Shown: positions 6,153 to 51,343, numbered from the stretch's first letter. The stretch: 64,000 nt of DNA from Patescibacteria group bacterium (GCA_028716665.1 JAQUPP010000001.1:282860-346859), one strand, 5' to 3'. A program made the numbers and translations. The notes: generated by a model from the letters alone, not told the origin.

Positions 6153-6156
6153 CTTT

Positions 6157-30715: not shown

Positions 30716-31489
30716 ATGAATGTTTTTTATTGGTTCTTCAGTTTTATTTTTGGCTTGTCAATCGGCAGTTTTTTGAACTGTTTGATTTGGCGTTTGCATA
30801 TTAAAAAATCAATTCAAGGACGTTCTGTTTGTCCTGATTGCGGCCATCAAATTGCCGGGTATGATAATATTCCTGTTTTAAGTTTTATTTTTTTAAAAGG
30901 GCGTTGCCGTCATTGCCATCAAAAAATTTCTTGGCAGTATCCGATAGTTGAATTGGCGACTGGTCTTCTTTTTGTATTTTCTTTTTTAATTTTAGATTCC
31001 AGGCTTCATATTTTAGACTCTATATTTTATATTTCACTTTTTCGCTATTGGATTATCTCAGCCGTTTTAATCTTTACTTTTGTTTATGATTTTAAATATC
31101 TTGAAATTGAAGATGTTGTTCTTCTGCCTTCGGCCGGAATAGTTTTTGTCTTGGATTTATTGCTCGGTTATTCGGCGATTAAAATATTTTTAACTGTTTT
31201 AATCGCTGTTCTTTTTTTTCTTCTCCAATATTGGATAACCAAAGGCAAAGGAGTTGGACTGGGCGATTATAGAATCGGTATTTTTATGGGCATGGCTTTG
31301 GGTAATTGGTCACAGTTGGCAGTGGCGATTTTTATTTCTTACATTGTCGGCACTTTAATCAGTTTAATTTTATTGATTGGCAAAAAGAAAGGAATAAAAA
31401 GCATGATTCCCCTGGGGCCGTTTTTGGCTATCGGAACATTTGCCGCAATTTTTTACGGTCAACAAATAATTAATTGGTACTTGTATTAG
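30716..31489 (+). CDS. pilD: Type IV prepilin peptidase (A24 family)
   Basis: N-terminal zinc motif 'CPDCGHQ...CRHCHQKI', catalytic 'GLGDYRI' region. Confidence 0.9.
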   Translation: MNVFYWFFSFIFGLSIGSFLNCLIWRLHIKKSIQGRSVCPDCGHQIAGYDNIPVLSFIFLKGRCRHCHQKISWQYPIVELATGLLFVFSFLILDSRLHILDSIFYISLFRYWIISAVLIFTFVYDFKYLEIEDVVLLPSAGIVFVLDLLLGYSAIKIFLTVLIAVLFFLLQYWITKGKGVGLGDYRIGIFMGMALGNWSQLAVAIFISYIVGTLISLILLIGKKKGIKSMIPLGPFLAIGTFAAIFYGQQIINWYLY

Positions 31490-31499
31490 AATTTAGAAT

Positions 31500-32069
31500 A
31501 TGGCAAATAAAAATATACTAAAACCGATTCCAAATTCCAATCCGCCAGCTGGCGGACCAAATTCCGGTAAAAGAGCTTTCACTCTTATTGAGCTTGTTGT
31601 TGTTATCAGTATTACAGCTTTAATTGCCGGGATGGTTTTTGCCAATATGAGAAGCGGCGGTCGTTCCGTAAATATTAATTCCGACGCGGAAAAATTAGCA
31701 GGAGTTATTAAACAGGCCCAAATGATGTCTTTAAGCGGCCAGCAAATTAATGGGATCAGGCCGGACGATGGATACGGCGTTTATATTACAACTAATTCTT
31801 ATAAACTTTTTGTTAATGATAATTTAGGCTCCAGTCATTTATATGAAGCCGAAGATACGGTTGTTCAATCTTTTGATTTTACTCAGTATGTGGAAGCGAG
31901 TCCGACCGGAACGACCATAATTTTTATTCCACCTCAGAGTACAATTTATGTTGATGGAAGCCAACTTGGGGATCCGAAAACATTAATCCTCACTCAAACT
32001 CAAGAAAATTTAAATGCTTATGTGAGAATTAAGGCTTATGGCGAAGTTGATGTCCGCAAGTCGCCATAG
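31500..32069 (+). CDS. Type IV pilin-like protein with a 27-aa leader 'MANKNILKPIPNSNPPAGGPNSGKRA|FTLIELVVV'
   Basis: FTLIEL with Glu+5 and a hydrophobic helix; the leader DNA carries the heptamer repeat and the CCGCCAGCTGGCGG palindrome. Confidence 0.8.
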   Translation: MANKNILKPIPNSNPPAGGPNSGKRAFTLIELVVVISITALIAGMVFANMRSGGRSVNINSDAEKLAGVIKQAQMMSLSGQQINGIRPDDGYGVYITTNSYKLFVNDNLGSSHLYEAEDTVVQSFDFTQYVEASPTGTTIIFIPPQSTIYVDGSQLGDPKTLILTQTQENLNAYVRIKAYGEVDVRKSP

Positions 32070-32114
32070 TAATCAAAATCTTAAAAATTATTTTAGAAAT
32101 CAAAATTATAAATT

Positions 32115-32645
32115 ATGAAACGCAGCGCGCAAAGTTTAATTGAGACCATTGTTGCTATTGGCATGATCACGGTCGCCATAGTGGCTATTTTATCTGTAGG
32201 TTTAAGCAATTTAATGTTAAGCGGACAAACCTCGGAAAGAGTGATAGCGACAAATTTGGCTCGCGAAGGGGTTGAAATTATTAATGCCATCAGGAGTAGC
32301 CAAAGATTGGATCCGGATCAAACCTGGCCTTATGGTATGACAAATGGCAATTGGATAGTTGATTACGACGATTCCAGTTTAACCGCAGCCGATTCCGCTA
32401 CAATTGGTGCATGTGATAATTGCAGTCTTTATATAACCGGTAATGATGTTTATACTCGTGATTCCGGCAGTAATACATTAACGATTTATCGCAGATTAAT
32501 TAATATTTCTGATGGCGATATTTTAGGCGGAAATTGTCTTAACGTGGGAGATTGCGAAAAAATAATTACCTCCACGGTTTATTGGACAGAGAGAGGAAGA
32601 CCGCACAGTATTGAACTTAAAACTCATTTAACAGATTGGAGATAA
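32115..32645 (+). CDS. Minor pilin / pseudopilin-like protein (non-canonical 'KRSA|QSLIETIVAIG')
   Basis: Glu at +5 of a hydrophobic N-terminal helix; small size. Confidence 0.6.
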   Translation: MKRSAQSLIETIVAIGMITVAIVAILSVGLSNLMLSGQTSERVIATNLAREGVEIINAIRSSQRLDPDQTWPYGMTNGNWIVDYDDSSLTAADSATIGACDNCSLYITGNDVYTRDSGSNTLTIYRRLINISDGDILGGNCLNVGDCEKIITSTVYWTERGRPHSIELKTHLTDWR

Positions 32646-32703
32646 AGATGGAATCTAGAATATGGAATTTAGAATTTAGAATAAAAAACAAAAAATTTAA
32701 AAT

Positions 32704-33762
32704 ATGGAAGAAAGAACAATAATAAAATCATTTACTGATTTGATGGTGTGGCAGGAAAGCCATAAGCTTATTTTATTGATTTATAAAATTACCAAAAAAT
32801 TTCCAAAAGAAGAACTTTTTGGTTTAACAAATCAAATGCGTCGAGCCGGAGTTTCAATTACGTCTAATATCGCTGAAGGATTTTCCAGACAAAGTTTTAA
32901 AGAAAAATTACAGTTTTATTATATGGCTCTTGGCTCACTGACTGAAGTCCAAAATCAATTTTTAATAGCCAAAGATTTAAAATATTTAGATCAAATAGAG
33001 TTTAGAGAAGCTATTGGGCAAATAACAAGCGTTCATAAATTATTGAATGCTTTTATTAAAAAATCTAAATTGATTCTAAGTTCTAATCCAAATTCCAAAT
33101 TCCAAATTCCAAATTCTAGTAATAAGGGTTTCACCCTCATTGAGCTTTTGATTTCTTTAAGTATTTTAGTAGTAGTGATCTTATCAGCAGTTGGTATTTA
33201 TATTAATATTATCGGCACGCGCAGTAAAAGTTTGGGGCAATTGAATCTTCAGGAAGATGGGCAGTATATCATGAGCTTGATTGTGAAAGATATCCGCGCC
33301 AATAAAATAGATTATGATGAATATGGCGATAGTGATGAGAAAGATTGCGGAATTATAAACGTGAGCACCCTGAAAGTAGGAGACAATACTTCATCAAGAG
33401 TGGCAAAATTATGTTTACTTGATTTTAGTGCGACGCCGAATAAAATCAGATATAAAAGATGTCTTGATCCGAATAATGCAAACAGAGGTGTCCTAAAAAT
33501 ATGCAGAGGTGTTGACTGCACGACCAATGATTGTCCCTCCACGGGCGATACTTATCAAACAATAACTATGGCTAATTTGGGTGTTGAGCGCCTTGATTTT
33601 TATATCAATCCGTTTACTAATCCTTTTACGGCCGGTTCTATTACTTATATTCATCCTCGGGTTACTATAATTTTAAAATTAAAATCTTTAATTGAGAAAC
33701 CCGGTGAAAAACAAATAATTCTTGAGCAGACGGTTCCCCAGAGATACGAGCTCAAAAAATAG
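32704..33762 (+). CDS. In-frame fusion ORF: N-terminal four-helix-bundle protein (PF05635, '23S rRNA IVS'/Avd-like, ~120 aa), a heptamer-repeat-encoded linker 'SSNPNSKFQIPNSSNK', then a type IV pilin ('GFTLIELLISLSILVVV...')
   Basis: Family signature 'VSITSNIAEGFSR' in the N-terminal half; canonical prepilin cleavage/helix motif at aa ~142; the linker is a 4-unit 'ccaaatt' tandem (33088-33119). Confidence 0.7.
   Translation: MEERTIIKSFTDLMVWQESHKLILLIYKITKKFPKEELFGLTNQMRRAGVSITSNIAEGFSRQSFKEKLQFYYMALGSLTEVQNQFLIAKDLKYLDQIEFREAIGQITSVHKLLNAFIKKSKLILSSNPNSKFQIPNSSNKGFTLIELLISLSILVVVILSAVGIYINIIGTRSKSLGQLNLQEDGQYIMSLIVKDIRANKIDYDEYGDSDEKDCGIINVSTLKVGDNTSSRVAKLCLLDFSATPNKIRYKRCLDPNNANRGVLKICRGVDCTTNDCPSTGDTYQTITMANLGVERLDFYINPFTNPFTAGSITYIHPRVTIILKLKSLIEKPGEKQIILEQTVPQRYELKK
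33088..33119. repeat. AAATTCC/AAATTCT heptanucleotide tandem repeat (4 units); member of a dispersed family
   Basis: 'ccaaattccaaattccaaattccaaattctag'. Confidence 0.9.
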
Positions 33763-33821
33763 AATTTGGAATTTAGAATATAGAATTTAGAAAAAATAAA
33801 AATAAGAAAATAACATAAAAT

Positions 33822-34598
33822 ATGGAAAATAAAAATATACTAAAACTGGTTCCAAATTCCAATCCGCCAGCTGGCGGACCAAATTCTAGTAAAGATGGTC
33901 TTTCCATAATTTTAATTCTTTTGATTATTTCTTCTATTTTAACGGGCACGGTTATCGTTGGAGAAACTATTGTTAGACATACGCAGATAGTCAAAGGCGC
34001 TGAAGTTTCCGAAAAAGCCTTTTTTGCCGCTGAAACCGCGGTTGAAAAAGCGATTTATGGAGTGTTTAAAAATTACGCCAGTGTTACCACCGTTACCGAG
34101 GGCAGTATAATTTATGGCGCGACTTCCGCGACTTATTCAGCCAGTGTTAGCATCGACGTTGAAAATCCCGATACGGGTATTGATATAACAAATAGTGATC
34201 CTTGGATAATTTCTTTGGGAGAAGGAGAATCCTTTCAATTGAATTTGGATCTAAACAGCACGGCTTATCCTACGGCCTTGAGAATTGATCGGACGGGCGA
34301 TGGTTTTGGTGATTTGATTTTTTATCAATGTACCGCTTCCAGTAACGGATGTTCTTCTACGGAAAATCAAATTTTTTACTCGAATTTTACCGGACAGGAT
34401 ATTACTTTTAGTCCGTCTATTCCGACAAATTATTATCGAATTAGAATAAATAATTCAGGCGGAACCGGCACTTATACTTTAAAACCAAATTCCGCTACCC
34501 TGCCGATTGGTGTAAATATCACGGCGGAAGGATTCTATGGCGGTTACGAACGTCAGATAAATGACAATTATCCGAAGTGGCAGAAATTCGGGATATAA
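33822..34598 (+). CDS. Pilin-like protein with a duplicated leader 'MENKNILKLVPNSNPPAGGPNSSKDG'
   Basis: The first 23 codons are nearly identical at DNA level to the 31500 gene, including the CCGCCAGCTGGCGG palindrome; a hydrophobic helix follows. Confidence 0.6.
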   Translation: MENKNILKLVPNSNPPAGGPNSSKDGLSIILILLIISSILTGTVIVGETIVRHTQIVKGAEVSEKAFFAAETAVEKAIYGVFKNYASVTTVTEGSIIYGATSATYSASVSIDVENPDTGIDITNSDPWIISLGEGESFQLNLDLNSTAYPTALRIDRTGDGFGDLIFYQCTASSNGCSSTENQIFYSNFTGQDITFSPSIPTNYYRIRINNSGGTGTYTLKPNSATLPIGVNITAEGFYGGYERQINDNYPKWQKFGI

Positions 34599-34705: not shown

Positions 34706-37700
34706 ATGAAAATTTCCAATAAAGCGATAACTAATAAATTTTTAGTAAAAAGTTTTTTTATCGCTATTTTAATTATCAGTGCCAGCGCAATGGTTGTTTT
34801 TGCCTGGACAGAACCGACTTTAAGTCCGCCGGACGGAAATACTTCGCCGCCGATTAATGAGGGTTTAACCAGCCAGGGCAAGCTGGGTAATTTAGGTGTT
34901 GGAACAACAAGTCCGATAGAAAAACTTGAAATATATTCCGGAAATATTAATATTCGCCGTCCGGATAATAGCGCTACTATGGGCCTTCTTTTTTCTCAAG
35001 GAGTTAATGATTTATGGAGAACTTATATAACCAATGATAGCGCATCTGACTTAAGATTCCGGGCAGGCGCTACCGACCATATGACAATTCAATATTCTAC
35101 TGGCAATGTCGGCATCGGAACAACAGTTCCAGGATATCCATTGACAGTCAATGGCATTGTCCAAATTGGAACTAATTTATATCTTAATGGCGGAACGACA
35201 AAATATCTTTATGCCTCAGGGAGTGAATTAAGGATTGGAAGCCTCGGCGGCGGTGGTTTTATTTCATTTTACGGCAATGACGGTTCAAATCGCGAAATGA
35301 TGAGAATGACAGGCGCGAATTTGGGTATCGGGACAACAATTCCGGCATACAAGTTAGATGTGGTAGATAATACAAATGATATTAATGTTGGAGTTCGCGC
35401 AACGGCTGCTTCTAAAGCCGTTTATCTTAGATTAGAAGGTACTCACACTACCTATGGTGGTGTTATATATAAGACATCGGGGGCTGATACTTGGAAATTG
35501 GGAAATTTCGGAGATACTGCCGATTCCTTTAATATTTATACAGCAGGTTCAAATAGAATGACAGTATTATCCGGTGGCAACATCGGCATCGGGACAACAA
35601 TCCCGACTACGGTCTTAGATATTAATGGTGCTTTAACCGCTCGAGGTATGGCTGCTCCTTCAACTTCACCTGCGGGTCAAGGCAGAATATATTTTGATTC
35701 AACGGCCAATGTATTTAAGGTTTCAGAACATGGTGGCGTTTATACTAATCTTGTGGGTGGAAATTATTGGACCCGCGATAGTGGAAATGGATATCTTTAT
35801 TCTACGACTCTTACTGACAAAGTCGGTATCGGGACAACGGTTCCGGGGTATAAATTACAGATCAACAATACAGCAAAATCCGGGGCTGATAATGCGTTAG
35901 TCGCGATTAGCAGTTCTGATGCGACAAATCCTTTTCAATTTATTATTGGTAGGTCTGCGGCAGGAGCAGATTCTTATTACTCACTCCAATCAGTCGAGCA
36001 GAATACTGGTTATCGGGATATCGTGTTGCAACCAAATGGCGGCAATGTCGGAATTGGAACAACGGATCCGGGAGCGTATAAATTAAATGTAAATGGACAA
36101 ATTTTAGCCACTAGCTATATTCGCAGTGATAGTTATGTCCAAAGTCGTTCAACCACTCCTTATCTTGATTTATATCAAGATGGACAACAAGAGTGGAAAA
36201 TTGGACAACTTACAGCTGGCAGTAAAACTTTAACATTACAAGCTACTGGAGCAGCATCTCCAGATGTAATGACTTTATTGTCAACGGGTAATGTCGGTAT
36301 TGGGACAACAGTACCGGTTTCACCGTTGCATATTTATAAAGCAGTTGGCGGTGGAGGTATTACTACTTTTCTTACATTAGATCCGCATAGCGGAACCAAT
36401 GAAGATGGTTCAGCTATTGATTTTATTACTTCAACAGATACGGCAACTGTGGGAACTAAAATTGCAGGGGTGCGCGATGCGGCAGGTGCGTATGCTTCTT
36501 TAAGATTTACAACAAGAGGTTCAGATGGATTATTAGAACGAGTCAGAATAGCAAATAACGGCAAAGTCGGCATCGGGACGACAATACCGGGATATAAACT
36601 TGATGTTTGGGATTCCGGAGATGCGGCTATAACCAGAATTAATAATAATAACACAACCCATTACTATACCGGTTTGCGATTAGACAGAGAAGCTTCAGAG
36701 AAATGGTTTGTGGGTATGAATGCCACTGCCAGTAATGATAATTTAGTATTCAGGCGAGCAGGCACTACTGATGATATGGTAATCAGCACGAGCGGTTATG
36801 TCGGCATTGGAACAACCGCGCCAATATCGCAATTATCCGTAGCCATACCATACGCAAAAACCGATACCACAGAGCGCGATGCAATTAACATGGTGACCAA
36901 TGATACAAATCCCTTTAAACTGAATTTTTCAATTACAGGAGCGGCCACCATAGCCAATCGAGCGGCAATTTTACAAACCAGCGATAGTGGCTTGGCTTAT
37001 GGCGGAAATTTAATTCTTCAACCGAATACGGGCAATGTCGGTATTGGGACAACTGGACCAAGTGCTAATAAATTAGTTGTTGATGGCGGCGGACTTACTT
37101 TTCAAGGCGGCGGTTCTCATTATATTACCGGTTTAACGCCATTGGGAGCTGGCGATCCTGATACTTATGCCGCGAATAAAGGTTATGTTGATGCTATCGC
37201 AACGGGCAGTGTTGGTCTTTGGCAAGGTAGTATGACTGGCAATATTTATAAGGCTAATTCCGGCAATGTCGGCATCGGAACGACAGTGCCAGTAGAATTA
37301 TTGCATCTTAAAAAAGACCAAGCAGCTTATACAAATATAAAAATTGAAAATGCCAATTCTGCTGGAGCTGCGCAGGTATTTATGATTAATGATTTAGGTA
37401 GTGCCTACACTCAAGGACTATATGGTTCTACTCATGACGCCTATGGTGCCGTTTCTGCAAATGGTGGATTTACATATTTTAATGGGGCTGGTGGATTAAC
37501 CCTAATGGCAGATAATGCTGCGGGAATTATTAAATTTGCTACAGGAGGTAATAGTGAAAAGGTTCGAATTAATAGTACTGGTTATGTCGGCATCGGAACA
37601 ACAAACCCCTTAGAAAAACTTGAAGTATATTCTGGGAATATTCGTACTCACCGACCGGATAATAGCACCACCATGGGCTATCTTTACGCTCAAGCAGGCA

Positions 37701-38752
37701 CTGATTTATGGAGAACCTATACAACAAATGATAGCGCATCTGATTTAAGATTCCGAGCAGGCGCTACCGACCACATGGCAATTAAATATTCTACCGGCTA
37801 TGTCGGTATTGGAACGACAGGCCCGACACATAATTTACAAGTAAATGGGTATAATACTACTGGTACAAGCGTTGTTAATACAAAGGGGAACTATGATTTT
37901 TATGCTCCGGCTGGTCAATATCCTAGAGATTTGGGATTTGGGGTGATAGCCGGACCTGTTACGGGTAATGTTAATTTATATGGCCTTACTGACTGGAAAA
38001 GTGGTTATGGCGGTTATATAGGTGCTTGGTCAGATGTTACTGCTGCAACCGAGGGGAATACTAATGCGGCAGGTGTTGTTTCTATTTTACGAGGAAGTCC
38101 AACTAACAGTAATGCCTTTGGTTTTTATTCTGATTTGTCTAATTTTTCTGGGGCAGGAGGTAATACAAAATATGGTATTTATAGTACTGGAGAAACTTAT
38201 GATTATTTTGCCGGCAATGTTGGTATTGGGACAACGGTACCTTCTAATCTTTTAAGTGTTTGGGGGCAATTGGCTGTTGGTGAAATAGACATGCTAGATG
38301 CTCCTGATGGTGATAGAAATATTACAAATGTTAATAAACTTACCGTTGCAACCATTGATCCGGTCTATGAAATTAATGGTAAAAAGTATGCGACTTATGC
38401 CGCTTCAATTGCTGGCGGAGTGAAAGAAGAATACACCGGCAAAGCAAAACTTTTTGAAACAAAAACTTCAGAATACGAATACATAATTGATTTTAATAAA
38501 ATAGAGATTGGCTCTGACTTATGGGTTTGGAGGAATGCAGTGGATTTCTCGCGCGATAACGTGGATATATTGATTACCCCTTATGGAGAATCAGCTGATA
38601 TATATTATTTGATTGAAGGCGATAAAATAATTATTCGCGGCGACAAAATGGTTGAATTTTCTTACCGTTTAACCGGCAAAAGATTTGATTGGCAAAATTG
38701 GCCAACCTTATCTAAAGACCAAAATGAAAAAGCTTCATTTATTATCAAATAG
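34706..38752 (+). CDS. Giant secreted surface protein (1348 aa) with more than 15 copies of a Gly-rich 'xGNVGIGTT(I/V)PxxKLxVxG' repeat; phage-tail-fibre/beta-helix-like
   Basis: Signal peptide; the periodic repeats are readable in the translation; internal ~230-bp duplication (34901-35128 versus 37601-37828). Confidence 0.7.
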   Translation: MKISNKAITNKFLVKSFFIAILIISASAMVVFAWTEPTLSPPDGNTSPPINEGLTSQGKLGNLGVGTTSPIEKLEIYSGNINIRRPDNSATMGLLFSQGVNDLWRTYITNDSASDLRFRAGATDHMTIQYSTGNVGIGTTVPGYPLTVNGIVQIGTNLYLNGGTTKYLYASGSELRIGSLGGGGFISFYGNDGSNREMMRMTGANLGIGTTIPAYKLDVVDNTNDINVGVRATAASKAVYLRLEGTHTTYGGVIYKTSGADTWKLGNFGDTADSFNIYTAGSNRMTVLSGGNIGIGTTIPTTVLDINGALTARGMAAPSTSPAGQGRIYFDSTANVFKVSEHGGVYTNLVGGNYWTRDSGNGYLYSTTLTDKVGIGTTVPGYKLQINNTAKSGADNALVAISSSDATNPFQFIIGRSAAGADSYYSLQSVEQNTGYRDIVLQPNGGNVGIGTTDPGAYKLNVNGQILATSYIRSDSYVQSRSTTPYLDLYQDGQQEWKIGQLTAGSKTLTLQATGAASPDVMTLLSTGNVGIGTTVPVSPLHIYKAVGGGGITTFLTLDPHSGTNEDGSAIDFITSTDTATVGTKIAGVRDAAGAYASLRFTTRGSDGLLERVRIANNGKVGIGTTIPGYKLDVWDSGDAAITRINNNNTTHYYTGLRLDREASEKWFVGMNATASNDNLVFRRAGTTDDMVISTSGYVGIGTTAPISQLSVAIPYAKTDTTERDAINMVTNDTNPFKLNFSITGAATIANRAAILQTSDSGLAYGGNLILQPNTGNVGIGTTGPSANKLVVDGGGLTFQGGGSHYITGLTPLGAGDPDTYAANKGYVDAIATGSVGLWQGSMTGNIYKANSGNVGIGTTVPVELLHLKKDQAAYTNIKIENANSAGAAQVFMINDLGSAYTQGLYGSTHDAYGAVSANGGFTYFNGAGGLTLMADNAAGIIKFATGGNSEKVRINSTGYVGIGTTNPLEKLEVYSGNIRTHRPDNSTTMGYLYAQAGTDLWRTYTTNDSASDLRFRAGATDHMAIKYSTGYVGIGTTGPTHNLQVNGYNTTGTSVVNTKGNYDFYAPAGQYPRDLGFGVIAGPVTGNVNLYGLTDWKSGYGGYIGAWSDVTAATEGNTNAAGVVSILRGSPTNSNAFGFYSDLSNFSGAGGNTKYGIYSTGETYDYFAGNVGIGTTVPSNLLSVWGQLAVGEIDMLDAPDGDRNITNVNKLTVATIDPVYEINGKKYATYAASIAGGVKEEYTGKAKLFETKTSEYEYIIDFNKIEIGSDLWVWRNAVDFSRDNVDILITPYGESADIYYLIEGDKIIIRGDKMVEFSYRLTGKRFDWQNWPTLSKDQNEKASFIIK

Positions 38753-38780
38753 AATAATTAATAATCTAATTATAAAATAT

Positions 38781-39398: not shown

Positions 39399-39418
39399 CT
39401 TTAAAGGGTTTTGCCCTT

Positions 39419-41227: not shown

Positions 41228-41599
41228 ATGGAAAATGACAATGTAAATTTTAAAAATGAATTCAAAAAACGCCTTTATAACTGGGTTTTAAGATTAATCA
41301 AGTTTATAGACAAGCTTCCCAAAGACTCCGTATGTAATGTCTTGGGAAAACAGCTTCTAAGAAGTGGAACAAGCATTTTGGCAAATTATATTGAGGCAAA
41401 CTCAGCCAGCTCAAAGAAAGATTTTATTAATTTTTTCACTCATTCTTTAAAATCAGCCAATGAATCTAAGGTTTGGCTGACATTATTAAGAGATACTGAC
41501 AAAGGAGATAAAAATGAATTGCAGTGGTCATTAAAAGAACTGATAGAAATAGCCAATATTCTGGCTTCCAGCATTTTAACTCTCAAGGGTAAGAAATAA
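41228..41599 (+). CDS. Four-helix-bundle protein (PF05635 / TIGR02436, '23S rRNA IVS' / Avd-like)
   Basis: 'LRSGTSILANYIEANSASSKKDFINFF' family signature; 123 aa. Confidence 0.7.
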   Translation: MENDNVNFKNEFKKRLYNWVLRLIKFIDKLPKDSVCNVLGKQLLRSGTSILANYIEANSASSKKDFINFFTHSLKSANESKVWLTLLRDTDKGDKNELQWSLKELIEIANILASSILTLKGKK

Positions 41600-41673: not shown

Positions 41674-41702
41674 TTGACCCACCCATAAAAAGGGGATACA
41701 AT
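41674..41702 (+). promoter_or_regulatory. Sigma70-type promoter (TTGACC-N17-TACAAT) for the giant fibre gene
   Basis: Read directly from the sequence. Confidence 0.45.
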
Positions 41703-41751: not shown

Positions 41752-44700
41752 ATGAAAAAACAAATATTTTCTTCAAAAATTATTTATTTTTCGATTTTTT
41801 TAATTTTAATTTGTTTTTCTTATTGGGGAGTAGAAAAAGTAAGGGCAGCTGATCCGCTGGACAATGATCAGATTGATATGCTGAAATATTTAGACATGAA
41901 TGAGCACGGGATTTTTAATTTAGCTACTCCGGTAGATGATGATAACGCCGCGACACAAGGATATGTTAAATCAGTAGTTTTAACAAATACTGGTTGGACG
42001 GCTACTGACAGCTATATTTATTTAACTACTATTGGTAATAGCGTCGGTATTGGAACAACAATTCCGGTCGCAAAATTGGAAGTTGCCAATAATTATAGCA
42101 GCACGGCAACGCTACCTTCGGCTAATATTGGTATAGTTGGGCGTAATTATACAGGTTCCGGCGCTGATGTTATTGGTGTCTATGGACAAGGAAAAACCAA
42201 TGACGCTTCTTATAACAGTTATGGCGGTTATTTTTATGGCACTTATAGCAGTAATAGAAATAAAGCGATTGGTATTTATGCTTATGGAAATGATTATGCG
42301 GCTATTTTGGATGGTACTGTCGGAATCGGATCATCAATACCGGCTACAAAATTAGATGTTAATGGCAATATTGCGGCGAATACCTATTATTCTCGTGGTG
42401 ATCCAATCGGTTATTTTCTTAATCCTGCCGCAGGTGGTACGGGTTGGGGATTATATTCCAATGGTTCTGTATATGCTTCTGGAAGTGATGATAATTATTT
42501 TGCCGGAAGCGTCGGAATTGGAATAACAAATCCGGGAGCAAAACTTTCAATCGTAACACCGGATACCAATTATTCAACAATATGGTCTAATAACGGTGGT
42601 GCAAATAATGAATATCTTTCTTTATATCAAACTGTTGATGATTTTATATTTACTTCCAATAAAAATGGTTCAGGAGTTCGTAAGGGTATAGGAATTACTG
42701 CCACAGGTGCGGATAATACCATGCCTAGTGGAATATATTTAAAAACAGACGGTTATGTCGGAATAGGAACAACAATTCCGGGTTTTAATCTTGATGTTTA
42801 TGGTTCAGGGGTTGTGGCATCGCAAATTGTAAGCACTAATAATTATTCAGCTCAATATATTAAAGGTGGTCAGAGCGGAGATGTACGCTGGGGATTATTT
42901 AGCGGATATCCGAATGTGGGAGATTTTACAATCAGAGAGACAGGAGTTGCTGATTATTTGACAGTCAAAAAAACTACCGGCAATGTCGGTATTGGGACGA
43001 CGATTCCAGGCATGGTATTAACAGTTAATACGAGTACTAATGATCAAGGTATTCAAATTCAAGGAGCAGCATCAAATATTAGTCCTGTACTTAAATTCGC
43101 AACTTCGGCAGGTACTGCTTATGCTCGTATTGGTATTGCGGGTGCAGCTGGTAATTTAGCTACAAACAGTGGTCAAAATGATTTAGTTATTAGAACAGAA
43201 GGTACTCAAAAACTTCATCTTGCTCCAGGAGCCGTTATTACTGAAACTTTGCTTTCTACTGGTTATGTCGGCATTGGAACAACAATCCCATCAACAAATC
43301 TTGATGTTAATGGCCAAATAAAAATCAGAGGAGGGGTACCTGGCGCTGGTAAAATTTTAATTTCGGATGCAGTTGGTTTAGCTACTTGGTCTCCTGCCAC
43401 TTCTATCAGCGATGGCGACTGGACAATTTCCGGCAATAATCAATATTCTGCTGTTTCCGGCAACGTCGGTATTGGGACAACGGATCCGACGGCAATTTTA
43501 CAAATTAATAAATCCACTGGCGGTAGTGGACAAAAATGGTTGATTCTTTCTACGACTGGAGCTTCCAGTGAAGGAATGGTTTTTAGAACTGACAATGGTG
43601 ATATTAATCGTATCACGTCTTATGGTGATTTGTATTTAGAATCCAATAATGGTTCAGGTGCTACTTTAGGACTTGATAGTGGTGGTCATTCTAGTTTTGG
43701 AGGTTATGTTTATGCACCCAGTTTGACTGTAGGTGGACTGGACATTACCCCACCGACAGAGGGAGCTATTATTTCCGGCAATGTCGGTATCGGGGTGACG
43801 GATCCAGTTAGTAAATTAGCAATTTTATCCGGAGCGGGTGTTGGCGGAATTTCAATCGGCACTGATGAAACTTATGCTGCTGTAGCTGCTCCCGACGGCG
43901 GAGCAATAATTGAAGGCAATGTCGGTATCGGTTATACAACTGCTTCTATAGATAAATTAAGAGTTAATGGTTCTATTATGTCTACGGGTCCTGCTGGTGG
44001 GAGTCCGTTGCTTACATCGGCTATTAGAATGTCAGTGGAAGGATCCGGAGCTTATGGACAAGTTCAAACTTATAATTCTGTGCCCTTAGTGTTAAACCCC
44101 ACAACTGCGGGCGGTAATGTCGGTATTGGCGTGACAAATCCGGGTAATAAATTAAGTGTTTATGGAGGCACAATAGGTGCTTATAATTTTGACGGAACCG
44201 ATGGTCTATTAATTGAAGGATATAGCGCTTCAGCTAGCGATGATGCAATGATGCAATTTCATACTTCGGGAGCGCTTTATAAAATGGGAATAGATTATTC
44301 TGATGAAGGAAAATTTAAGCTTACTTATGGTAGTGAAGATAATGGACAGACACAAATTGTAATGACTGGCTCCGGTAAGGTTGGAATTGGATTAGCAAAT
44401 CATACTCCGTTATCCAAACTGGACGTGTCGGGTAATATGGCTATTGGTTCTTATGCCGGGGCTAGCGCCGCACCTTCAAATAGTTTAATAGTTAGTGGCA
44501 ATATTGGTATTGGAACAACAGCACCGGGAATAGATTTAGCTATTGGCGATACTGATACCGGTTTAGATTGGGCGAGTGATGGTAATTTAAAAGTAATGAC
44601 TAATAATTCAGAAAGAATAAGAATCGCTTCAGATGGTAAGGTTGGAATTGGAACAACCGGGCCGGTAAATCCACTTCATATTTATTCGTCATCATCTTCT

Positions 44701-45963
44701 GTAATTCCATTGAGAGTTGACGATTATTATTATACTTATTCAATAGGAGCTGGAACTTTTTCATCGCCCAATACAAATGGATGGCAATTATACAAAGCAA
44801 GCTCGGAAACTTATTATGACAGCGTAGTGGGTGGGCATCATTTTTTGACCTCAGGATCTGAAAAAGTTACATTTACGAGTGATGGTAAGCTTGGAATCGG
44901 AACAGCTACGCCAGCAACATATTTAGACATCAAAGGAACACAAGTTGCCGGAAGCTACGGAGATGCCGCAACAGCGATAAAGATTAATATGACAAATGAT
45001 GCTTCATCAATCTATGGTGGAATTGCATGGAAGGACAGCGAAACAGCGGCCGAGACTTGCGGGATTTATCCTATGCGTTCGGGCGGAGTGAATTATTTCG
45101 ATTTTTTAAATACAGGTACAGTTTATATGAGGTTATTAGGCGGAACAGGAACAATCTTGAATGACAACAGCGCTGACTTGGATTTTCGCGTAGAAAGCAA
45201 TGATAACGCAAATATGTTTTTTGTTGATGGTGGGGCAAATACAGTAACAGTAGGATATAACGGATCACTTGGTTCTAAATTTAATGTTTATTCGGCGACA
45301 AATAACACAACACAATTTACCGGTCATCTATTGAATGTCAGAGCAGGAGATGGAACCACTAATACAATTAGTGAAATTGATTTCGGAGTAGCCAATACAG
45401 TAGCACCAGTTATTATCGGAAGTAAAGTTATAGACGGTTCCGGTGCTACAAAGGGAGATTTTTATATCGGGACAAGAGATTCGACAGATGGAGCAACGCT
45501 TCCAACAGAAAGATTAAGAGTAACAACCGCTGGCAAAGTCGGTATCGGGATAACAAATCCGGGACAAGCATTGGATGTTACTGGAACTATTCGCCAATCA
45601 GCTTGTAAAACAGCCGGTACTCTTTCCGCAAATACTTCAGGTGATATTATTTGTACATCTGATGAGCGATTGAAAAATATTTATGGATATTATCAAGGCG
45701 GACTTGCCGCGCTTTCCGCAATTAATCCGATAAAATTTTCTTATAAAGGAGAAGATTTCGTTCATGTGGGATTCTCGGCGCAGAATGTAAAAAGTGTTTT
45801 ACCTGAAGCCAGCGCCTTGCAGGATAGCGGTTATTGGAGCTTGGACGATACATCAATTACGGCATTAACTGTAAATGCCATCAAAGAACAACAAAAAGAA
45901 ATCGAAGATTTGAAAAATGTTGTCTGTCAATTAAAACCCGATGCAGATGTCTGCAATAAGTAA
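41752..45963 (+). CDS. Giant tail-fibre-like surface protein (about 1400 aa) with a C-terminal peptidase-S74 intramolecular-chaperone (autoproteolytic) domain
   Basis: Signal peptide; N-terminal 'IFNLATPVDDDNAATQGYVKS' tail-fibre-like motif; many GNVGIGTT repeats; C-terminal 'CTSDERLKNIYGY...HVGFSAQNVKSVLPEAS...ITALTVNAIKEQQKEIEDLKN' matches the endosialidase-chaperone domain. Confidence 0.75.
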   Translation: MKKQIFSSKIIYFSIFLILICFSYWGVEKVRAADPLDNDQIDMLKYLDMNEHGIFNLATPVDDDNAATQGYVKSVVLTNTGWTATDSYIYLTTIGNSVGIGTTIPVAKLEVANNYSSTATLPSANIGIVGRNYTGSGADVIGVYGQGKTNDASYNSYGGYFYGTYSSNRNKAIGIYAYGNDYAAILDGTVGIGSSIPATKLDVNGNIAANTYYSRGDPIGYFLNPAAGGTGWGLYSNGSVYASGSDDNYFAGSVGIGITNPGAKLSIVTPDTNYSTIWSNNGGANNEYLSLYQTVDDFIFTSNKNGSGVRKGIGITATGADNTMPSGIYLKTDGYVGIGTTIPGFNLDVYGSGVVASQIVSTNNYSAQYIKGGQSGDVRWGLFSGYPNVGDFTIRETGVADYLTVKKTTGNVGIGTTIPGMVLTVNTSTNDQGIQIQGAASNISPVLKFATSAGTAYARIGIAGAAGNLATNSGQNDLVIRTEGTQKLHLAPGAVITETLLSTGYVGIGTTIPSTNLDVNGQIKIRGGVPGAGKILISDAVGLATWSPATSISDGDWTISGNNQYSAVSGNVGIGTTDPTAILQINKSTGGSGQKWLILSTTGASSEGMVFRTDNGDINRITSYGDLYLESNNGSGATLGLDSGGHSSFGGYVYAPSLTVGGLDITPPTEGAIISGNVGIGVTDPVSKLAILSGAGVGGISIGTDETYAAVAAPDGGAIIEGNVGIGYTTASIDKLRVNGSIMSTGPAGGSPLLTSAIRMSVEGSGAYGQVQTYNSVPLVLNPTTAGGNVGIGVTNPGNKLSVYGGTIGAYNFDGTDGLLIEGYSASASDDAMMQFHTSGALYKMGIDYSDEGKFKLTYGSEDNGQTQIVMTGSGKVGIGLANHTPLSKLDVSGNMAIGSYAGASAAPSNSLIVSGNIGIGTTAPGIDLAIGDTDTGLDWASDGNLKVMTNNSERIRIASDGKVGIGTTGPVNPLHIYSSSSSVIPLRVDDYYYTYSIGAGTFSSPNTNGWQLYKASSETYYDSVVGGHHFLTSGSEKVTFTSDGKLGIGTATPATYLDIKGTQVAGSYGDAATAIKINMTNDASSIYGGIAWKDSETAAETCGIYPMRSGGVNYFDFLNTGTVYMRLLGGTGTILNDNSADLDFRVESNDNANMFFVDGGANTVTVGYNGSLGSKFNVYSATNNTTQFTGHLLNVRAGDGTTNTISEIDFGVANTVAPVIIGSKVIDGSGATKGDFYIGTRDSTDGATLPTERLRVTTAGKVGIGITNPGQALDVTGTIRQSACKTAGTLSANTSGDIICTSDERLKNIYGYYQGGLAALSAINPIKFSYKGEDFVHVGFSAQNVKSVLPEASALQDSGYWSLDDTSITALTVNAIKEQQKEIEDLKNVVCQLKPDADVCNK

Positions 45964-46054: not shown

Positions 46055-46433
46055 ATGAATCAATTTTCAAACCCGAAAAACAAGGAATATAATTTAGAAG
46101 AAAGAACAGCCAAATTCAGCGAAGACATAATAGAATTCATAAGAAGCATTAAGAGAGACGATATTAATCGTAATATTATTACTCAATTAGCGCGTGCCAT
46201 AACTTCAATCGGCGCTAATTATTGCGAAGCTAATGCTTCCAGCTCAAAAAAGGATTTTCGCAATAAAATATATATTTGCAAAAAAAGAGGCCAATGAAGC
46301 AAAATATTGGTTAAGGATATTGGCTAAATATCATCCTGAATTGAAAGAAAAAATAAGAATTTTTTGGCAAGAAGCCCATGAATTTCATCTGATTTTTCAG
46401 AAAATTACCAACACCCTGGATAAAAAAGTTTAA
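46055..46433 (+). pseudogene. Four-helix-bundle (PF05635) gene disrupted by a frameshift in an A7 run near 46270 (two overlapping ORFs, 46055-46297 and 46233-46433)
   Basis: 'ITSIGANYCEANASSSKKDFRNK' continues in the +1 frame as 'IYIAKKEANEAKYWLRIL...'; paralogue of the 41228 gene. Confidence 0.6.
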
Positions 46434-46537: not shown

Positions 46538-47140
46538 ATGAACAAAAAAACAATTTTGACAATCGTCATTATCGTGATACTCGTGGTGGTTGGTATTATT
46601 CTCGTGAAGAATATGCCTGCGCAAAAAACCATTAAAACAACCGTGCCAAAAGAAACGGTTACGCCAGGGACAACTCCAAATGTTGAAACCCCGATCGCTC
46701 CGGTTGAAGGAGCCAAACAAGCCGCGCCTGGGACAAGTTTTGTCACCAAGGAAGGCGAAGTTGTTACTCCGGAAGGAACGCCGGTTAAGCAAGATGCTTT
46801 GCCTGGTGCGCCTGAAGCGCCGAAACAATCAAAATCTTTAACTGAAACAGAAATTCCCGCCGGTTCAGTTCAATTAAACGTAACTGCCAGCGGTTTTACT
46901 CCGAATGAATTTTCCGTCAAAGCCGGTCAAGTTGTCACTTTAACCGTTACTGCCGGTGATGAGAAAACTCACGTTTTTAAATTTGATGACGCCAGTTTAT
47001 CCGCCGTGGCAATCGGTATTGCCGGACACGAAACTCGGGCGATTACTTTTAAAGCACCAGCCAAGGGAGATTATTCTTTCTTTTGTGATGTTCCGGGTCA
47101 TTCCCAGAGAGGCGAGAAAGGCGTGATGCATGTTAAATAG
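46538..47140 (+). CDS. Membrane-anchored azurin-like cupredoxin, paralogue of the 38781 gene
   Basis: 'EKTHVFKF', 'FFCDVPGH', 'GVMHV' ligands; N-terminal TM; conserved 5' region 'attaataatctaatta..atgaacaaaaaaa' shared with 38760-38790. Confidence 0.7.
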   Translation: MNKKTILTIVIIVILVVVGIILVKNMPAQKTIKTTVPKETVTPGTTPNVETPIAPVEGAKQAAPGTSFVTKEGEVVTPEGTPVKQDALPGAPEAPKQSKSLTETEIPAGSVQLNVTASGFTPNEFSVKAGQVVTLTVTAGDEKTHVFKFDDASLSAVAIGIAGHETRAITFKAPAKGDYSFFCDVPGHSQRGEKGVMHVK

Positions 47141-49001: not shown

Positions 49002-49131
49002 TTTATCCCCCTTTGTTTGAAAATGACCCTTTTTCGAGTCATTTATTGCCAAGCGAGCGAGGGAAAAGAAAATTTATTTTCTTTTCCGAGCGAGCGCTGG
49101 CAACACAGGGTCTAGTACCCTTTATAAATTA

Positions 49132-49160: not shown

Positions 49161-49213
49161 TCCCTTAAAAGATCGACAATAAAGCCTTTTCAGGGTTAAA
49201 AAGAAAAAGGGGG

Positions 49214-49285: not shown

Positions 49286-51343
49286 ATGCGCAATAAAATG
49301 AAGTCCGCCAAAGCCCTTGGCAAAAGTGGAAAAAAATTAATTTTATCTTCAAAACTTATTTATTTTCTGGTTTTTTTATTTGTTATTTGTTTGGGAATAG
49401 AAAGAGCGGGAGCAACCGTGCCGAGTCAATATATTATTTCCGACAAAGCGATAAAAATGGGAAATACCACGCCCTTGAAAATTTTTAATTTAGGCACTCC
49501 GGAAGAATCCACGGATGCCACGACAAAACAATATGTTGATTCAATTGCCACGGGCACGGGCGCGATTGGTCTTTGGATGTCCAATGGTGTTGATATTTAT
49601 AATAATAATTCCGGCAACGTCGGTATCGGATCAACAATACCTTCTGCCAAACTGGATGTTGCGGGAGATATTCGTTCAAAAGGAATTTCAAGTTTTCTCA
49701 TAAATACTCAGAATGAGGGTATTGCAATTTTATATCCCGAAACTGCCAATACATATACCCGAATCGGTCCGACCGGTTTTTCTCCAAGTCTTGCAAGCGG
49801 CGCAGATGATTTGGCAATTGTTGGTAAATTGGAAGTAGCGGGAATAGGTTATTTTAACTATAATGTCGGTATCGGAACAACCGGACCAACGCATCATTTG
49901 GAAGTTATTGAGAGAAATGATGGATATGGAGATTGGAGTCATGGTGTTTTGCCTTTTCAACCGGCGGGTGTTTTTATTCAAGCCAGCAATGTTAATTCAG
50001 CCGGTCTTTATGGCGAAGGTTATACTCGAGGTGTTTGGGGAGTGGCGCGAGCCAATGGAGGAAGTGGCTATGGTATTTTGGGAGAAATGGGAAGCGGAGA
50101 ATGCTCTTGGCCTCTTGATGATGCAACGGGTGGCGCTATTGTTGGTGTGACTAATTGTTCATCAGGTAATTCTGGGGTAGCAATAAGGGCAACTGTATTA
50201 ACCGGTGTTGAAGGGTATGGCATTTATTCTCAAGGAAATTTAAGTAAAAATTATTTTGAAGGCAATGTCGGTCTTGGATCGACAACACCGGCCGCTGATT
50301 TGGATATTAACGGTAATGCTCAATTGAATATTCTTTATGATCGCGTTAATTCAAATTATCATCTTGATCTTGGCGCAAATACATTTACCAGTTCTTTGAC
50401 TGTTGCCGGTAATATTGGTATTGGCGTGACGAATCCCGGATATAAATTAAGTATGGCTGACACTGGCAGTTATATTGGGGCGAGTTTTAAATTTGGCGGA
50501 TCTTATGTTCCGGTAAATATAGTTGGCGGTACAAATGTGGGAGCCTATTGGCGTGAAAATTTTATTGGTTCAAATATTGATTTAGATACGACTACTGGAA
50601 AACCCAAAACCAGTGTAAATGGTTATCGAGGAGGAGCGATCGGATTTGCTCCCGATCCCGGGCAAGGACAAATTCATTTTTTTACCAATGCGGGTTCTAC
50701 TGCCGGAACGGTCTTGTCTGAAAGAATGGTTATAGACAGCGCGGGTAATGTCGGTATTGGAATGGCGCCTTCGTACATACTTGATGTTACGGGCGGTCAT
50801 GGAGCAAAAGTCGCAAGATTTACGGGAGGCACCAGCGGAGATAAAAGTTTGTATATGTATGCGGATAGTGGCGGCTCCGGCATAACTGATGCGGATACTT
50901 ACAAAGAATTAATTTATCTTAAGCCGGCGGATAATTCTATAAATTTTTACAATAATGGCAGCGGCCCGAACGTGACGATAAATGCTACCGGCAAAGTCGG
51001 TATCGGAACAACCGCGCCGAATTCCACTCTTCATGTTAATGGTTCTTTCACGAGAGCAATAGTAACCAAAACTTCAACTTATACGGCAACCGCTTCGGAC
51101 GATATTATATTATGTGATGCATCCGGAGGAGGTTTTGTAATTACTCTTCCCACCGCAGTGGGTATTGCCGGAAGAGAATATACGATAAAAAAAATAGACA
51201 GTTCAGCAAATCAGTGCGGTTATACCACGACATCAGGTCAGACAATAGATGGAGTTGCGCTGACTTATCAATTAGGCACTCAATGGCAGACAAGAACAAT
51301 GGTTTCAGATGGAACGAATTGGATAAGATTGTCAAATATTTAA
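49286..51343 (+). CDS. Large tail-fibre-like surface protein (~685 aa) with GNVGIGTT repeats
   Basis: Signal/TM; 'IFNLGTPEESTDATTKQYVDS' tail-fibre-like N-terminal motif; repeats; the ORF-track start at 49241 overlaps its own promoter. Confidence 0.65.
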   Translation: MRNKMKSAKALGKSGKKLILSSKLIYFLVFLFVICLGIERAGATVPSQYIISDKAIKMGNTTPLKIFNLGTPEESTDATTKQYVDSIATGTGAIGLWMSNGVDIYNNNSGNVGIGSTIPSAKLDVAGDIRSKGISSFLINTQNEGIAILYPETANTYTRIGPTGFSPSLASGADDLAIVGKLEVAGIGYFNYNVGIGTTGPTHHLEVIERNDGYGDWSHGVLPFQPAGVFIQASNVNSAGLYGEGYTRGVWGVARANGGSGYGILGEMGSGECSWPLDDATGGAIVGVTNCSSGNSGVAIRATVLTGVEGYGIYSQGNLSKNYFEGNVGLGSTTPAADLDINGNAQLNILYDRVNSNYHLDLGANTFTSSLTVAGNIGIGVTNPGYKLSMADTGSYIGASFKFGGSYVPVNIVGGTNVGAYWRENFIGSNIDLDTTTGKPKTSVNGYRGGAIGFAPDPGQGQIHFFTNAGSTAGTVLSERMVIDSAGNVGIGMAPSYILDVTGGHGAKVARFTGGTSGDKSLYMYADSGGSGITDADTYKELIYLKPADNSINFYNNGSGPNVTINATGKVGIGTTAPNSTLHVNGSFTRAIVTKTSTYTATASDDIILCDASGGGFVITLPTAVGIAGREYTIKKIDSSANQCGYTTTSGQTIDGVALTYQLGTQWQTRTMVSDGTNWIRLSNI

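Follow-up and report, generated by a model that had tools for sequence, protein, structure and literature searches.

The gene at positions 41752..45963 (+ strand) of a 64-kb stretch of Patescibacteria DNA, here called the window, encodes a 1403-aa protein, fibre 2, which combines a predicted export-type N-terminus, a long repetitive shaft related to phage tail fibres and a C-terminal peptidase S74 domain. We consider it probable that fibre 2, encoded on the chromosome, is exported and forms a homotrimeric beta-helical fibre at the cell surface, of the kind described in Bdellovibrio bacteriovorus as mosaic adhesive trimers (MAT; Caulton et al. 2024, PMC10769870). By analogy with these proteins, it would most likely act as a Sec-exported, self-trimerising adhesin. 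The initial annotation had interpreted the gene as a phage-fibre architecture used as a cellular appendage or adhesin, and the parallel with the experimentally characterised MAT fibres argues for that interpretation; to call the fibre 'domesticated', as it did, presupposes a direction of transfer.

Among bacterial surface fibres, the cell-encoded type with a self-cleaving trimerisation chaperone is real, has been described before and is very common; the family profile finds more than 250,000 cluster representatives at E of 1e-10 or better. Public annotation already flags the protein as being of tail-fibre type: its counterpart in a near-identical MAG, P0001, differs by 1 aa (tblastn against the P0001 contig), has the same ATG start in the NCBI annotation and is named there 'tail fiber domain-containing protein [Patescibacteria group bacterium]'.

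A C-terminal S74 chaperone domain in fibre 2

The peptidase S74, or ICA (auto-processing intramolecular chaperone), domain (45658..45960, + strand; aa 1303–1403) forms the last 101 of the 1403 residues of fibre 2 and comes straight after a shaft repeat. The initial annotation had read an S74 signature at the C-terminus from the sequence and proposed a search with PF13884. That search matched Peptidase_S74 at aa 1303–1353 with E=3.1e-8 and a score of 34.2 bits, above the curated cut-off of 22, thus bearing out the assignment. The signature begins with S1303-D-E-R-L-K1308 and continues through GFSAQNV and PEA to NAIKEQQKEIEDLK. Ser1303 and Lys1308 are invariant across an alignment of 26 sequences, and in a 17-sequence alignment of C-termini the S, D, R and K of the motif are all invariant.

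A profile built from the 17 sequences matched, in the PDB, the ICA domain of MyRF (7dc3, E=1.7e-22), the long tail fibre of phage S16 (6f45, 2.7e-19), a further tail fibre (8jov, 4e-19) and the phi29 gp12 chaperone (3gud, 1e-5). The chaperone part of fibre 2 was modelled by AlphaFold2 with pLDDT >90, and the fold of the model gave its best PDB matches to MyRF ICA (7dc3), the K1F endosialidase chaperone (3gw6) and T5 pb1 (4uw8) with Foldseek probabilities of 1.00, 0.93 and 0.92 respectively; the TM-scores of these matches are modest because a monomer was modelled. The chain is predicted to be cut on the N-terminal side of Ser1303, Lys1308 serving as general base, which would release a 101-aa fragment. 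Among 50 close homologues that carry the SDxRxK dyad, 35 are without a hydrophobic N-terminal segment, and these may be phage proteins, which tells against the cellular reading.

The protein had also been called giant. The 1403-aa open reading frame is as described, and its size is relative, since relatives found with the profile reach ∼7,900 aa.

A repetitive shaft and a predicted export-type N-terminus

The shaft of fibre 2 carries 15 copies of a G-x-VGIGTTxPxxxLxV repeat (42001..45657, + strand, as seen in motif positions and in the DNA repeat families D1, D3 and D4), which lie 41–216 aa apart in a Gly/Thr/Ser-rich sequence. The motif is one residue longer than the published V-G-G/N-small-x-x-P-x-x-x-L consensus, as it is in the Bdellovibrio structures 8oml and 8ond. 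Near-identical motifs, for example GNVGIGATAPTAKLEVAG, are common to this shaft and the MAT fibres, and the family profile matched the shafts of Bd2133 (8ond, E=5e-22, in three stretches), Bd1334 (8oml, 3e-13) and Bd2439 (8.5e-6). The shaft also matched the tail-fibre families phrog_9942 (E=5e-28) and phrog_18345 (E=8e-22), while an NCBIfam search of the fibres gave no matches. The shaft is predicted to form a trimeric beta-helix with 'capping loops'; it was poorly modelled, with pLDDT <50, in the AlphaFold2 monomer.

Residues 1–32 (41752..41847, + strand) are predicted by hydropathy to be a Sec signal peptide or an N-terminal membrane anchor. They comprise a basic n-region (MKKQIFSSK), a hydrophobic core and then VRA|AD, and contain the sole hydrophobic 19-aa stretch of the protein (Kyte–Doolittle >1.6 only at aa 3–10 onward). 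The segment is nearly identical in the orthologues P0002–P0005. Each of the three fibres encoded at this locus has one such hydrophobic N-terminal segment, presumably serving as a signal peptide or anchor. A virion protein would need no signal segment, and its presence on all three proteins counts in favour of a cellular, non-virion fibre. We identified no cell-wall or membrane anchoring motif by which a cleaved fibre could stay attached, a point that weighs against the surface-fibre reading. A sigma-70-like promoter pattern, TTGACC-17-TACAAT (41674..41702, + strand; 10/12 positions in a consensus scan), lies ∼50 nt upstream of the start codon; as a pattern match only, it carries no functional weight.

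The initial annotation had also pointed to an N-terminal 'NL.TP...DAATQGYV' tail-fibre motif. This is indeed present, as a IFNLATPVDDDNAATQGYV module at aa 54–72 of fibre 2 (41911..41967, + strand, read from the sequence) and at aa 66–84 of fibre 3. Its standing as an N-terminal signature did not hold, because the module is internal in fibre 1 (aa 807–828) and occurs in up to five internal copies in other relatives; it is instead a reusable module. In tblastn it matched phage tail-fibre genes, each match being weak by itself (E from 3e-3 to 1).

Two paralogues with other tips

The locus contains three fibre genes, not two, and the S74 domain is confined to fibre 2. Fibre 1 (34706..38752, + strand) encodes a further, non-S74 paralogue of 1348 aa with 14 shaft repeats of the VGIGTTxPxxxL type and an internal duplication. 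Fibre 3 (49286..51343, + strand; 685 aa, six shaft repeats) had been described as sharing the motif of fibre 2 and ending differently, and both points stand: its C-terminal tip was modelled (pLDDT 94.8) as a beta-sandwich of the T4 gp10-like/tailspike XD fold, matching Solidus gp83 tailspike, CBA120 TSP4 and T4 gp10/gp9 with a Foldseek probability of 1.00. By phmmer, the tips of fibres 1 and 3 gave chance-level matches only against the PDB.

Hypervariable fibres in a syntenic housekeeping locus

Throughout its 64 kb, the window consists of housekeeping DNA of a Patescibacteria genome; the housekeeping proteins that it encodes are found on a contig of 640 kb. A PilD prepilin peptidase gene and four pilin or minor-pilin-like genes (30716..34598, + strand; Pfam A24 and N_methyl matches, and sequences) lie immediately upstream of fibre 1, which directly follows the minor-pilin-like cluster, an arrangement that is kept in related genomes. 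Four related Patescibacteria assemblies keep the locus in synteny, in the order minor pilins, fibre 1, fibre 2 (with S74), fibre 3, Pth, Der; the genes nearest to the fibres encode pilins, cupredoxin, Pth, Der and LCP. A search of the window's ORFs of 100 aa or more revealed no gene for capsid, terminase, portal, tail tube, baseplate, integrase or lysis. For ORFs of this size in the 64-kb window, this lack of phage genes for structure, packaging or integration, together with the chromosomal synteny, bears out the earlier statement that there are no other phage genes nearby and responds to its suggestion of a scan for prophage genes.

Between relatives, the flanking proteins are strongly conserved (Der 97% identical, LCP 93–95%, cupredoxin 90–98%), whereas fibre 2 is only 36–53% identical overall, with patches at 89%. 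The fibres are mosaic and hypervariable relative to the genes that flank them.

Avd-like PF05635 genes flank the fibre. Diversification by a diversity-generating retroelement (DGR) was considered and rejected: the window contains no reverse transcriptase, no template/variable repeat pair was found, and the one long internal repeat of fibre 1 shows no adenine-specific mismatch bias (14 vs 16 of 56 mismatches).

A model for export and assembly

We suggest that the unfolded chain would pass across the membrane through Sec by means of its N-terminal signal or anchor segment. Outside the cell, where ATP-dependent chaperones are lacking, three S74/ICA domains would associate and template folding of the intertwined shaft. 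Once the trimer had formed, Ser1303, activated by Lys1308, would cut the chain, so that the 101-aa chaperone departs and the distal tip is exposed. The mature fibre could then project from the cell and bind a ligand borne by a host cell or by some other surface. Together with its two non-S74 paralogues, which have other tips, fibre 2 would make up a small repertoire, presumably diversified by mosaic recombination.

A more far-reaching version of this scheme, which we offer as speculation and think rather doubtful, is that the three-fibre locus determines the host range of an episymbiotic Patescibacteria cell, acting together with type IV pili. Within a minor-pilin operon, fibre 1 would take the place of PilY1, relatives like P0078 (below) would be true pilin–fibre–S74 fusions, and the S74 domain would let phage-type trimeric fibres fold outside the cell. 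If so, strain-level swapping of tips and shafts would set which hosts can be attached to.

Alternative explanations

The conserved pilin neighbourhood raises the possibility that the machinery of type IV pili deploys the fibres, as adhesins at the tip or in an accessory role and with fibre 1 placed in the genome like PilY1, instead of their being anchored on the envelope by themselves. PilD and the four pilin-like genes directly before fibre 1, in an order conserved in relatives, are what this would lead one to expect. So is a Patescibacteria homologue, P0078, whose gene sits in a housekeeping context and in which the same shaft and an S74 domain (E=1.3e-13) follow, as a fusion, the N_methyl leader of a type IV pilin (E=2.6e-6). 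A Liptonbacteria locus likewise has a pilin-like gene upstream of an S74 protein. Nevertheless, the N-termini of fibres 1–3 are of the Sec type and not class III (G|FTLIE) leaders, adjacency does not equal interaction, and a homotrimer fits poorly on a pilus tip complex that has one copy of each subunit. We regard deployment through the pilus as unlikely, and continue to favour a self-trimerising fibre exported by Sec.

It is very improbable that fibre 2 is the targeting fibre of a tailocin or extracellular contractile injection system (eCIS) with core genes at another place in the genome, even though eCIS operons without an annotated Afp13 fibre recurrently include PF13884 proteins as a 'shell' component (PMC8213781). 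The window has no sheath, tube, baseplate or AAA+ gene, and the genome is small and reduced, as judged from the 640-kb contig. Furthermore, assembly of such particles takes place in the cytoplasm, and a Sec signal would not be expected on their fibres, whereas all three fibres here carry a predicted one.

The founding S74 protein is an endosialidase, and glycanase sites are frequent in the surface clefts of beta-helical tailspikes (PMC10769870), so one might suppose that fibre 2 is a secreted, tailspike-like polysaccharide depolymerase and not an adhesin. This too seems most improbable, given that Pfam, NCBIfam and PHROGs revealed no catalytic domain and that the body of the protein is made of short fibre repeats, with no single large right-handed beta-helix domain.

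Least probable of all is that an ordinary or cryptic prophage tail fibre happens to lie in the window, since the matches of the shaft and C-terminus to phage tail-fibre PHROGs, and the S74 domains 30–39% identical on viral contigs, must be set against the lack of phage structural, packaging, integration or lysis genes among the window's ORFs of at least 100 aa, the shared gene order in four related genomes with flanks about 93–98% identical, the N-terminal signal or anchor segment, and the finding of no close full-length relative in IMG/VR when its viral contigs were searched with the single fibre 2 protein.

Relationship to known fibre systems

The means by which ultrasmall Patescibacteria recognise and attach to their hosts are for the most part unexplained; type IV pili and various large surface proteins have been put forward in the literature (e.g. 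PMC13059738). Our literature searches found no paper on S74 fibres in Patescibacteria, and the table of other lineages in the MAT paper lists Omnitrophica, Micavibrio and the FCB group, with Patescibacteria absent (PMC10769870). Hypervariable, phage-type fibres encoded beside pilin genes are concrete candidates for such a role, and would extend the MAT concept from Bdellovibrio to a monoderm-like, host-dependent lineage.

The MAT family includes fibres with and without S74, and its proteins are located on the surface of the predator; one S74 member, Bd3182, cleaves itself at S782, and this is blocked by S782A (PMC10769870). Fibre 2 resembles this S74 subgroup in being cell-encoded, in its signal peptide (taken here from hydropathy), in a length of about 1,000 aa, and in a C-terminal S74 domain with SDxxxK. 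The shaft carries the same V-G-x-G...P...L capping-loop repeat as the trimeric beta-helix of MAT proteins, its trimeric state being predicted in our case, and in both systems one genome encodes S74 and non-S74 paralogues with differing tips and mosaic evolution. The differences are that the host here is a monoderm-like member of the Patescibacteria and not a diderm predator, that there are three genes instead of the 21 of Bdellovibrio, and that the fibre genes are clustered beside pilin genes. In addition, the segment between the signal and the first repeat, compared by length alone, is 25–65 aa, against ∼130 aa for the conserved beta-rich N-terminal domain of MAT proteins, which is probably not shared.

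With the phage ICA fibres (K1F 3gw6, T5 pb1 4uw8, S16 6f45, phi29 gp12 3gud), fibre 2 shares a chain that ends in an S74 domain containing a Ser-Lys dyad, and a shaft that matches tail-fibre PHROGs. It differs in lying outside any virion gene module, in being inherited with the chromosome, and in having a Sec-type N-terminus in place of a virion-attachment domain. The S74 proteins of eCIS operons (Geller et al. 2021, PMC8213781) are comparable as bacterial PF13884 proteins proposed to be targeting fibres; in contrast to these, fibre 2 has no eCIS core genes nearby, and its predicted signal peptide speaks against cytoplasmic assembly. The best PDB profile match, spanning the ICA domain as well as the capping-loop motif, is to the eukaryotic membrane-bound transcription factors MYRF and MrfA (7dc3), another non-viral use of the ICA module. 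In MYRF, cleavage frees a transcription factor from the ER membrane, whereas fibre 2 has no DNA-binding domain.

The S74 chaperone domain of fibre 2

The fibre 2 gene (41752–45963, + strand) encodes a protein of 1403 aa, the final 101 aa of which form an S74/ICA (intramolecular chaperone auto-processing) domain, as judged from Pfam, alignments, profile searches and a structural model. The Pfam match to PF13884 (Peptidase_S74, 'chaperone of endosialidase') covers aa 1303–1353 with E=3.1e-8 and 34.2 bits, the curated cut-off being 22 bits. The signature S-D-x-R-L-K...GF.AQ.V...PE reported in the initial annotation is present from Ser1303–Lys1308 onward and reads, in order, Ser1303-Asp-Glu-Arg-Leu-Lys1308, GFSAQNV, PEA and NAIKEQQKEIEDLK. 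When 26 full-length homologues are aligned, just nine columns are invariant, S1303 and K1308 among them; in 17 sequences aligned over their C-terminal 220–250 aa, the S, D, R and K residues of the SDxRxK motif never vary.

A profile built from the latter alignment was used for structure searches, and matched the ICA domain of MyRF (7dc3, E=1.7e-22), the phage S16 long-tail-fibre chaperone (6f45, E=2.7e-19), the tail fibre 8jov (E=4e-19) and the phi29 gp12 chaperone (3gud, E=1e-5). In an AlphaFold2 monomer model of aa 1178–1403, pLDDT was >90 over the chaperone part, and the closest folds in the PDB were MyRF ICA (probability 1.00), 3gw6, which is the intramolecular chaperone of K1F endosialidase (0.93), and T5 pb1 (4uw8, 0.92). 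TM-scores stay modest, since the model contains a single chain of what would be an intertwined trimer. The Pfam score, the invariant Ser and Lys and the fold matches bear out the assignment of an S74 chaperone to the end of fibre 2.

Shafts and tips of the three fibres

In aa 1–32 of fibre 2, a basic n-region is followed by a hydrophobic core of 18 residues and VRA|AD. This is its sole hydrophobic 19-aa stretch, and would fit either an anchor at the N-terminus or a Sec signal peptide. A 'IFNLATPVDDDNAATQGYV' module (aa 54–72) precedes the Gly/Thr/Ser-rich shaft (aa ~84–1302), in which the repeat G-x-VGIGTTxPxxxLxV occurs 15 times at a spacing of 41–216 aa; the repeats are also visible in the DNA as repeat families D1, D3 and D4. 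The shaft matches tail-fibre PHROGs (phrog_9942, E=5e-28; phrog_18345, E=8e-22).

The N-terminal hydrophobic segment and shaft repeats are common to all three fibres, with S74 in fibre 2 alone. Fibre 1 (34706–38752, 1348 aa) has 14 shaft repeats and a tip for which no PDB relative was detectable by sequence. Fibre 3 (49286–51343, 685 aa) has six, and its C-terminal domain had been described as different from that of fibre 2, which stood: the tip (50981–51340) is modelled as a T4 gp10-like/tailspike 'XD' beta-sandwich (pLDDT 94.8), matching Solidus gp83 tailspike, CBA120 TSP4 and T4 gp10/gp9 with probability 1.00. The gp10-like/XD domain serves in phages as a docking site for other fibres, and the predicted fold makes branched assemblies of fibres conceivable.

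Fibre 1 also carries an internal duplication of 269 nt (34886–35154 and 37580–37848, 79% identity), in which one full shaft unit is doubled. Small PF05635 '23S rRNA intervening sequence'/four-helix-bundle genes (TIGR02436, with weak bAvd similarity) occupy intergenic spaces near the pilin and fibre genes, at 32704–33070 (sharing its frame with a pilin ORF that runs to 33762), 41228–41599 and, truncated, 46055–46297. The Avd-like genes flanking fibre 2 prompted us to consider a DGR, which was ruled out because the window contains no reverse transcriptase and no template/variable pair, and because the mismatch spectrum of the fibre 1 duplication is unbiased, without adenine-specific excess. The PF05635 genes look like small mobile inserts; their presence, and that of Y1 transposase and GIY-YIG genes, varies among otherwise syntenic genomes (the window and loci L082–L085).

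A hypervariable locus in a stable chromosome

All window ORFs of at least 100 aa were scanned against Pfam. They include genes for replication, translation and core metabolism (DnaB, RecR, TIM, UMP-kinase-like, DnaJ, MetRS, NrdD/NrdG, release factor, GlmS, Pth, Der), envelope functions (FemAB, D-Ala-D-Ala carboxypeptidase, HtrA, glycosyltransferases, an LCP protein, an O-antigen-ligase-like protein), competence and pili (ComEC, PilD, several pilins), and radical-SAM enzymes. Among these ORFs the scan found no gene for capsid, terminase, portal or tail proteins, for an integrase or for lysis, in agreement with the earlier statement that fibre 2 has no other phage genes nearby. A DUF4116 protein with seven 25-aa-type repeats (1745–2581) and a cluster of four tRNA genes (Thr, Tyr, Thr, Trp; 5993–6635) were also noted.

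The window Pth, MetRS and GlmS are identical to proteins of a 640,230-bp 'Patescibacteria group bacterium' contig, and one residue separates fibre 2 from an NCBI 'MAG: tail fiber domain-containing protein [Patescibacteria group bacterium]' (GCA_028713475.1). Four related assemblies have the same gene order: pilin-like genes, fibre 1, a ~600-aa protein, fibre 2, cupredoxin, C11 peptidase, fibre 3, Pth, Der and LCP. Across related genomes amino-acid identity is 97% for Der, 93–95% for LCP and 90–98% for cupredoxin, whereas it is 40–45% for fibre 1 and 36–53% overall for fibre 2, with near-identical N- and C-termini in some relatives and, against the homologue P0003, a single 304-aa patch at 89%. 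The fibres therefore diversify by mosaic exchange within a stable chromosomal background.

P0003 occurs in two assemblies (GCA_043956535.1 and GCA_028716625.1; L083/L084) with the NCBI source name 'Candidatus Omnitrophica bacterium', although Der at these loci shares 97% identity with the Patescibacteria copy in the window; the taxonomic labels of the window and P0003 assemblies probably conflict.

In all relatives the ~600-aa protein (39416–41194) separates fibre 1 from fibre 2 and is conserved (70–84% identity); it has a TM segment at its N-terminus, gave no match in Pfam, NCBIfam or PHROG, and may be part of the fibre system. Two membrane-anchored cupredoxin-like proteins (38775–39398 and 46538–47140; mutual identity 39%), each downstream of a fibre gene, consist of an N-terminal TM, a Pro/Glu/Thr-rich linker and a cupredoxin domain; that after fibre 2 is kept in all relatives (90–98%), that after fibre 1 only in this genome. 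Por_Secre_tail (type IX secretion C-terminal sorting) domains occur in two proteins conserved in related assemblies (47313–49052, − strand; 51561–52436, + strand), one fused to a C11 clostripain-like peptidase; Patescibacteria are not known to encode a T9SS. A 49-nt repeat (49198–49246 and 51428–51476, 82% identity) holding a promoter-like element, TGACAA...TAAAAT, lies upstream of fibre 3 and of the next Por_Secre_tail gene.

Distribution of the family

A search with full-length fibre 2 returned >1,200 homologues, the majority carrying a precomputed PF13884 annotation, under source names that include Patescibacteria, Omnitrophica, Bacteroidales, Verrucomicrobia, Dehalococcoidia and Elusimicrobiota. 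Relatives in a scan of species-representative genomes were chiefly from Acidobacteriota (Pyrinomonadaceae) and Bacteroidota, with others in Ignavibacteria, Chthoniobacterales, Phycisphaerales, Zixibacteria and several Patescibacteria. Two Chryseobacterium genomes, not labelled MAGs, have tandem arrays in which two to four signal-peptide S74 fibres follow one another. When a profile made from ICA and the final shaft repeat was searched against 1.84 billion cluster representatives (50% identity clusters), it matched 389,089 at E≤1e-3, 252,505 at E≤1e-10 and 58,704 at E≤1e-30. Some of the matching proteins reach ~7,900 aa with ~60 matched stretches; with its 1403 aa, fibre 2, previously called 'giant', is of middling size within a very large family. 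Viral contigs had domains alone in common with fibre 2 (S74 identity 30–39%), and no close full-length relative was found among those searched.

Proposed export and maturation, and alternative readings

By homology to T5 pb1, K1F endosialidase, MyRF and Bd3182, we infer that the N-terminal segment would drive Sec export of fibre 2, and that three ICA domains would then associate outside the cell, independently of ATP, templating the intertwined shaft. Autoproteolysis at Ser1303/Lys1308 would free the 101-aa fragment and expose the tip, allowing the mature fibre to bind its ligand. It might be retained on the cell by an uncleaved N-terminal anchor, by binding an envelope component or by association with a pilus.

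A link of the fibres to type IV pili is speculative. PilD and four pilin/minor-pilin-like genes (30716–34598) lie directly upstream of fibre 1, an order kept in relatives, and fibre 1 holds the position of PilY1 in classical minor-pilin operons. In the Patescibacteria homologue P0078, the shared shaft and an S74 domain (E=1.3e-13) follow a genuine pilin N_methyl leader (E=2.6e-6) in one fused protein. The link nevertheless stays a minority reading because the leaders of fibres 1–3 are Sec-type, none being pilin-type. P0078 comes from Hainich groundwater (L147, 666–3005), where it stands in a housekeeping context with SecA, TIM and a ribosome hibernation factor as neighbours. Two of the four pilin-like genes of the window (31500–34598) share MxNKNILKxxPNSNPPAGGPNSxK, a long and unusual leader for which a 78-nt repeat (31494–31571 and 33816–33893, 92% identity) codes.

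We think it very improbable that fibre 2 serves a tailocin or eCIS encoded elsewhere in the genome: eCIS operons do include S74 proteins (PMC8213781), but fibres of particles that form in the cytoplasm would not be expected to have a Sec signal. The housekeeping context, the synteny and the signal segment in practice exclude a prophage fibre, and a depolymerase has no support, fibre 2 having no catalytic-domain match in Pfam, NCBIfam or PHROGs.

The S74/ICA domain, the tail-fibre PHROG shaft and the synteny in four assemblies thus confirm the observation of a phage-fibre-type protein encoded by the cell in a non-phage context, and its interpretation as a cellular appendage or adhesin appears to hold.

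Comparison with Bdellovibrio MAT fibres

Among characterised systems, the window fibres come closest to the mosaic adhesive trimer (MAT) fibres of Bdellovibrio bacteriovorus, a set of 21 proteins of roughly 600–1,100 aa, all with a signal peptide (Caulton et al., 2024; PMC10769870). A conserved ~130-aa N-terminal domain precedes a trimeric beta-helical shaft with repeated 'capping loops' (consensus V-G-G/N-small-x-x-P-x-x-x-L) and variable tips, 13 of them S74-terminated with SDxxxK and 8 without. Bd3182 cleaves itself at S782, which S782A blocks; MAT proteins are located at the surface of the predator, and one of them has prey glycans as its ligand. MAT-like proteins are tabulated there for Omnitrophica, Micavibrio, 'Ca. 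Uabimicrobium' and the FCB-group, Patescibacteria being absent from that table (PMC10769870), and our literature search found no paper describing this fibre family in Patescibacteria.

Fibre 2 belongs to a very abundant family, is already flagged by public annotation and has a functional precedent in Bdellovibrio; mildly new are its occurrence in a Patescibacteria genome, the conserved yet hypervariable three-gene locus beside pilin genes, and the pilin-fused relative. Our C-terminal profile matched the solved MAT shafts Bd2133 (8ond, E=5.4e-22, three stretches), Bd1334 (8oml, 3e-13) and Bd2439 (8ol4, 8.5e-6), and the shaft motifs are near-identical (for example, GNVGIGATAPTAKLEVAG in Bd2133 versus NSVGIGTTIPVAKLEVAN in the window). 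Unlike MAT proteins, the window fibres probably lack the ~130-aa N-terminal domain, as judged by length, because the 25–65 aa between signal segment and first shaft repeat are too short for it. They resemble MAT in having a signal segment, a common shaft, adjacent S74 and non-S74 tips, and mosaic evolution.
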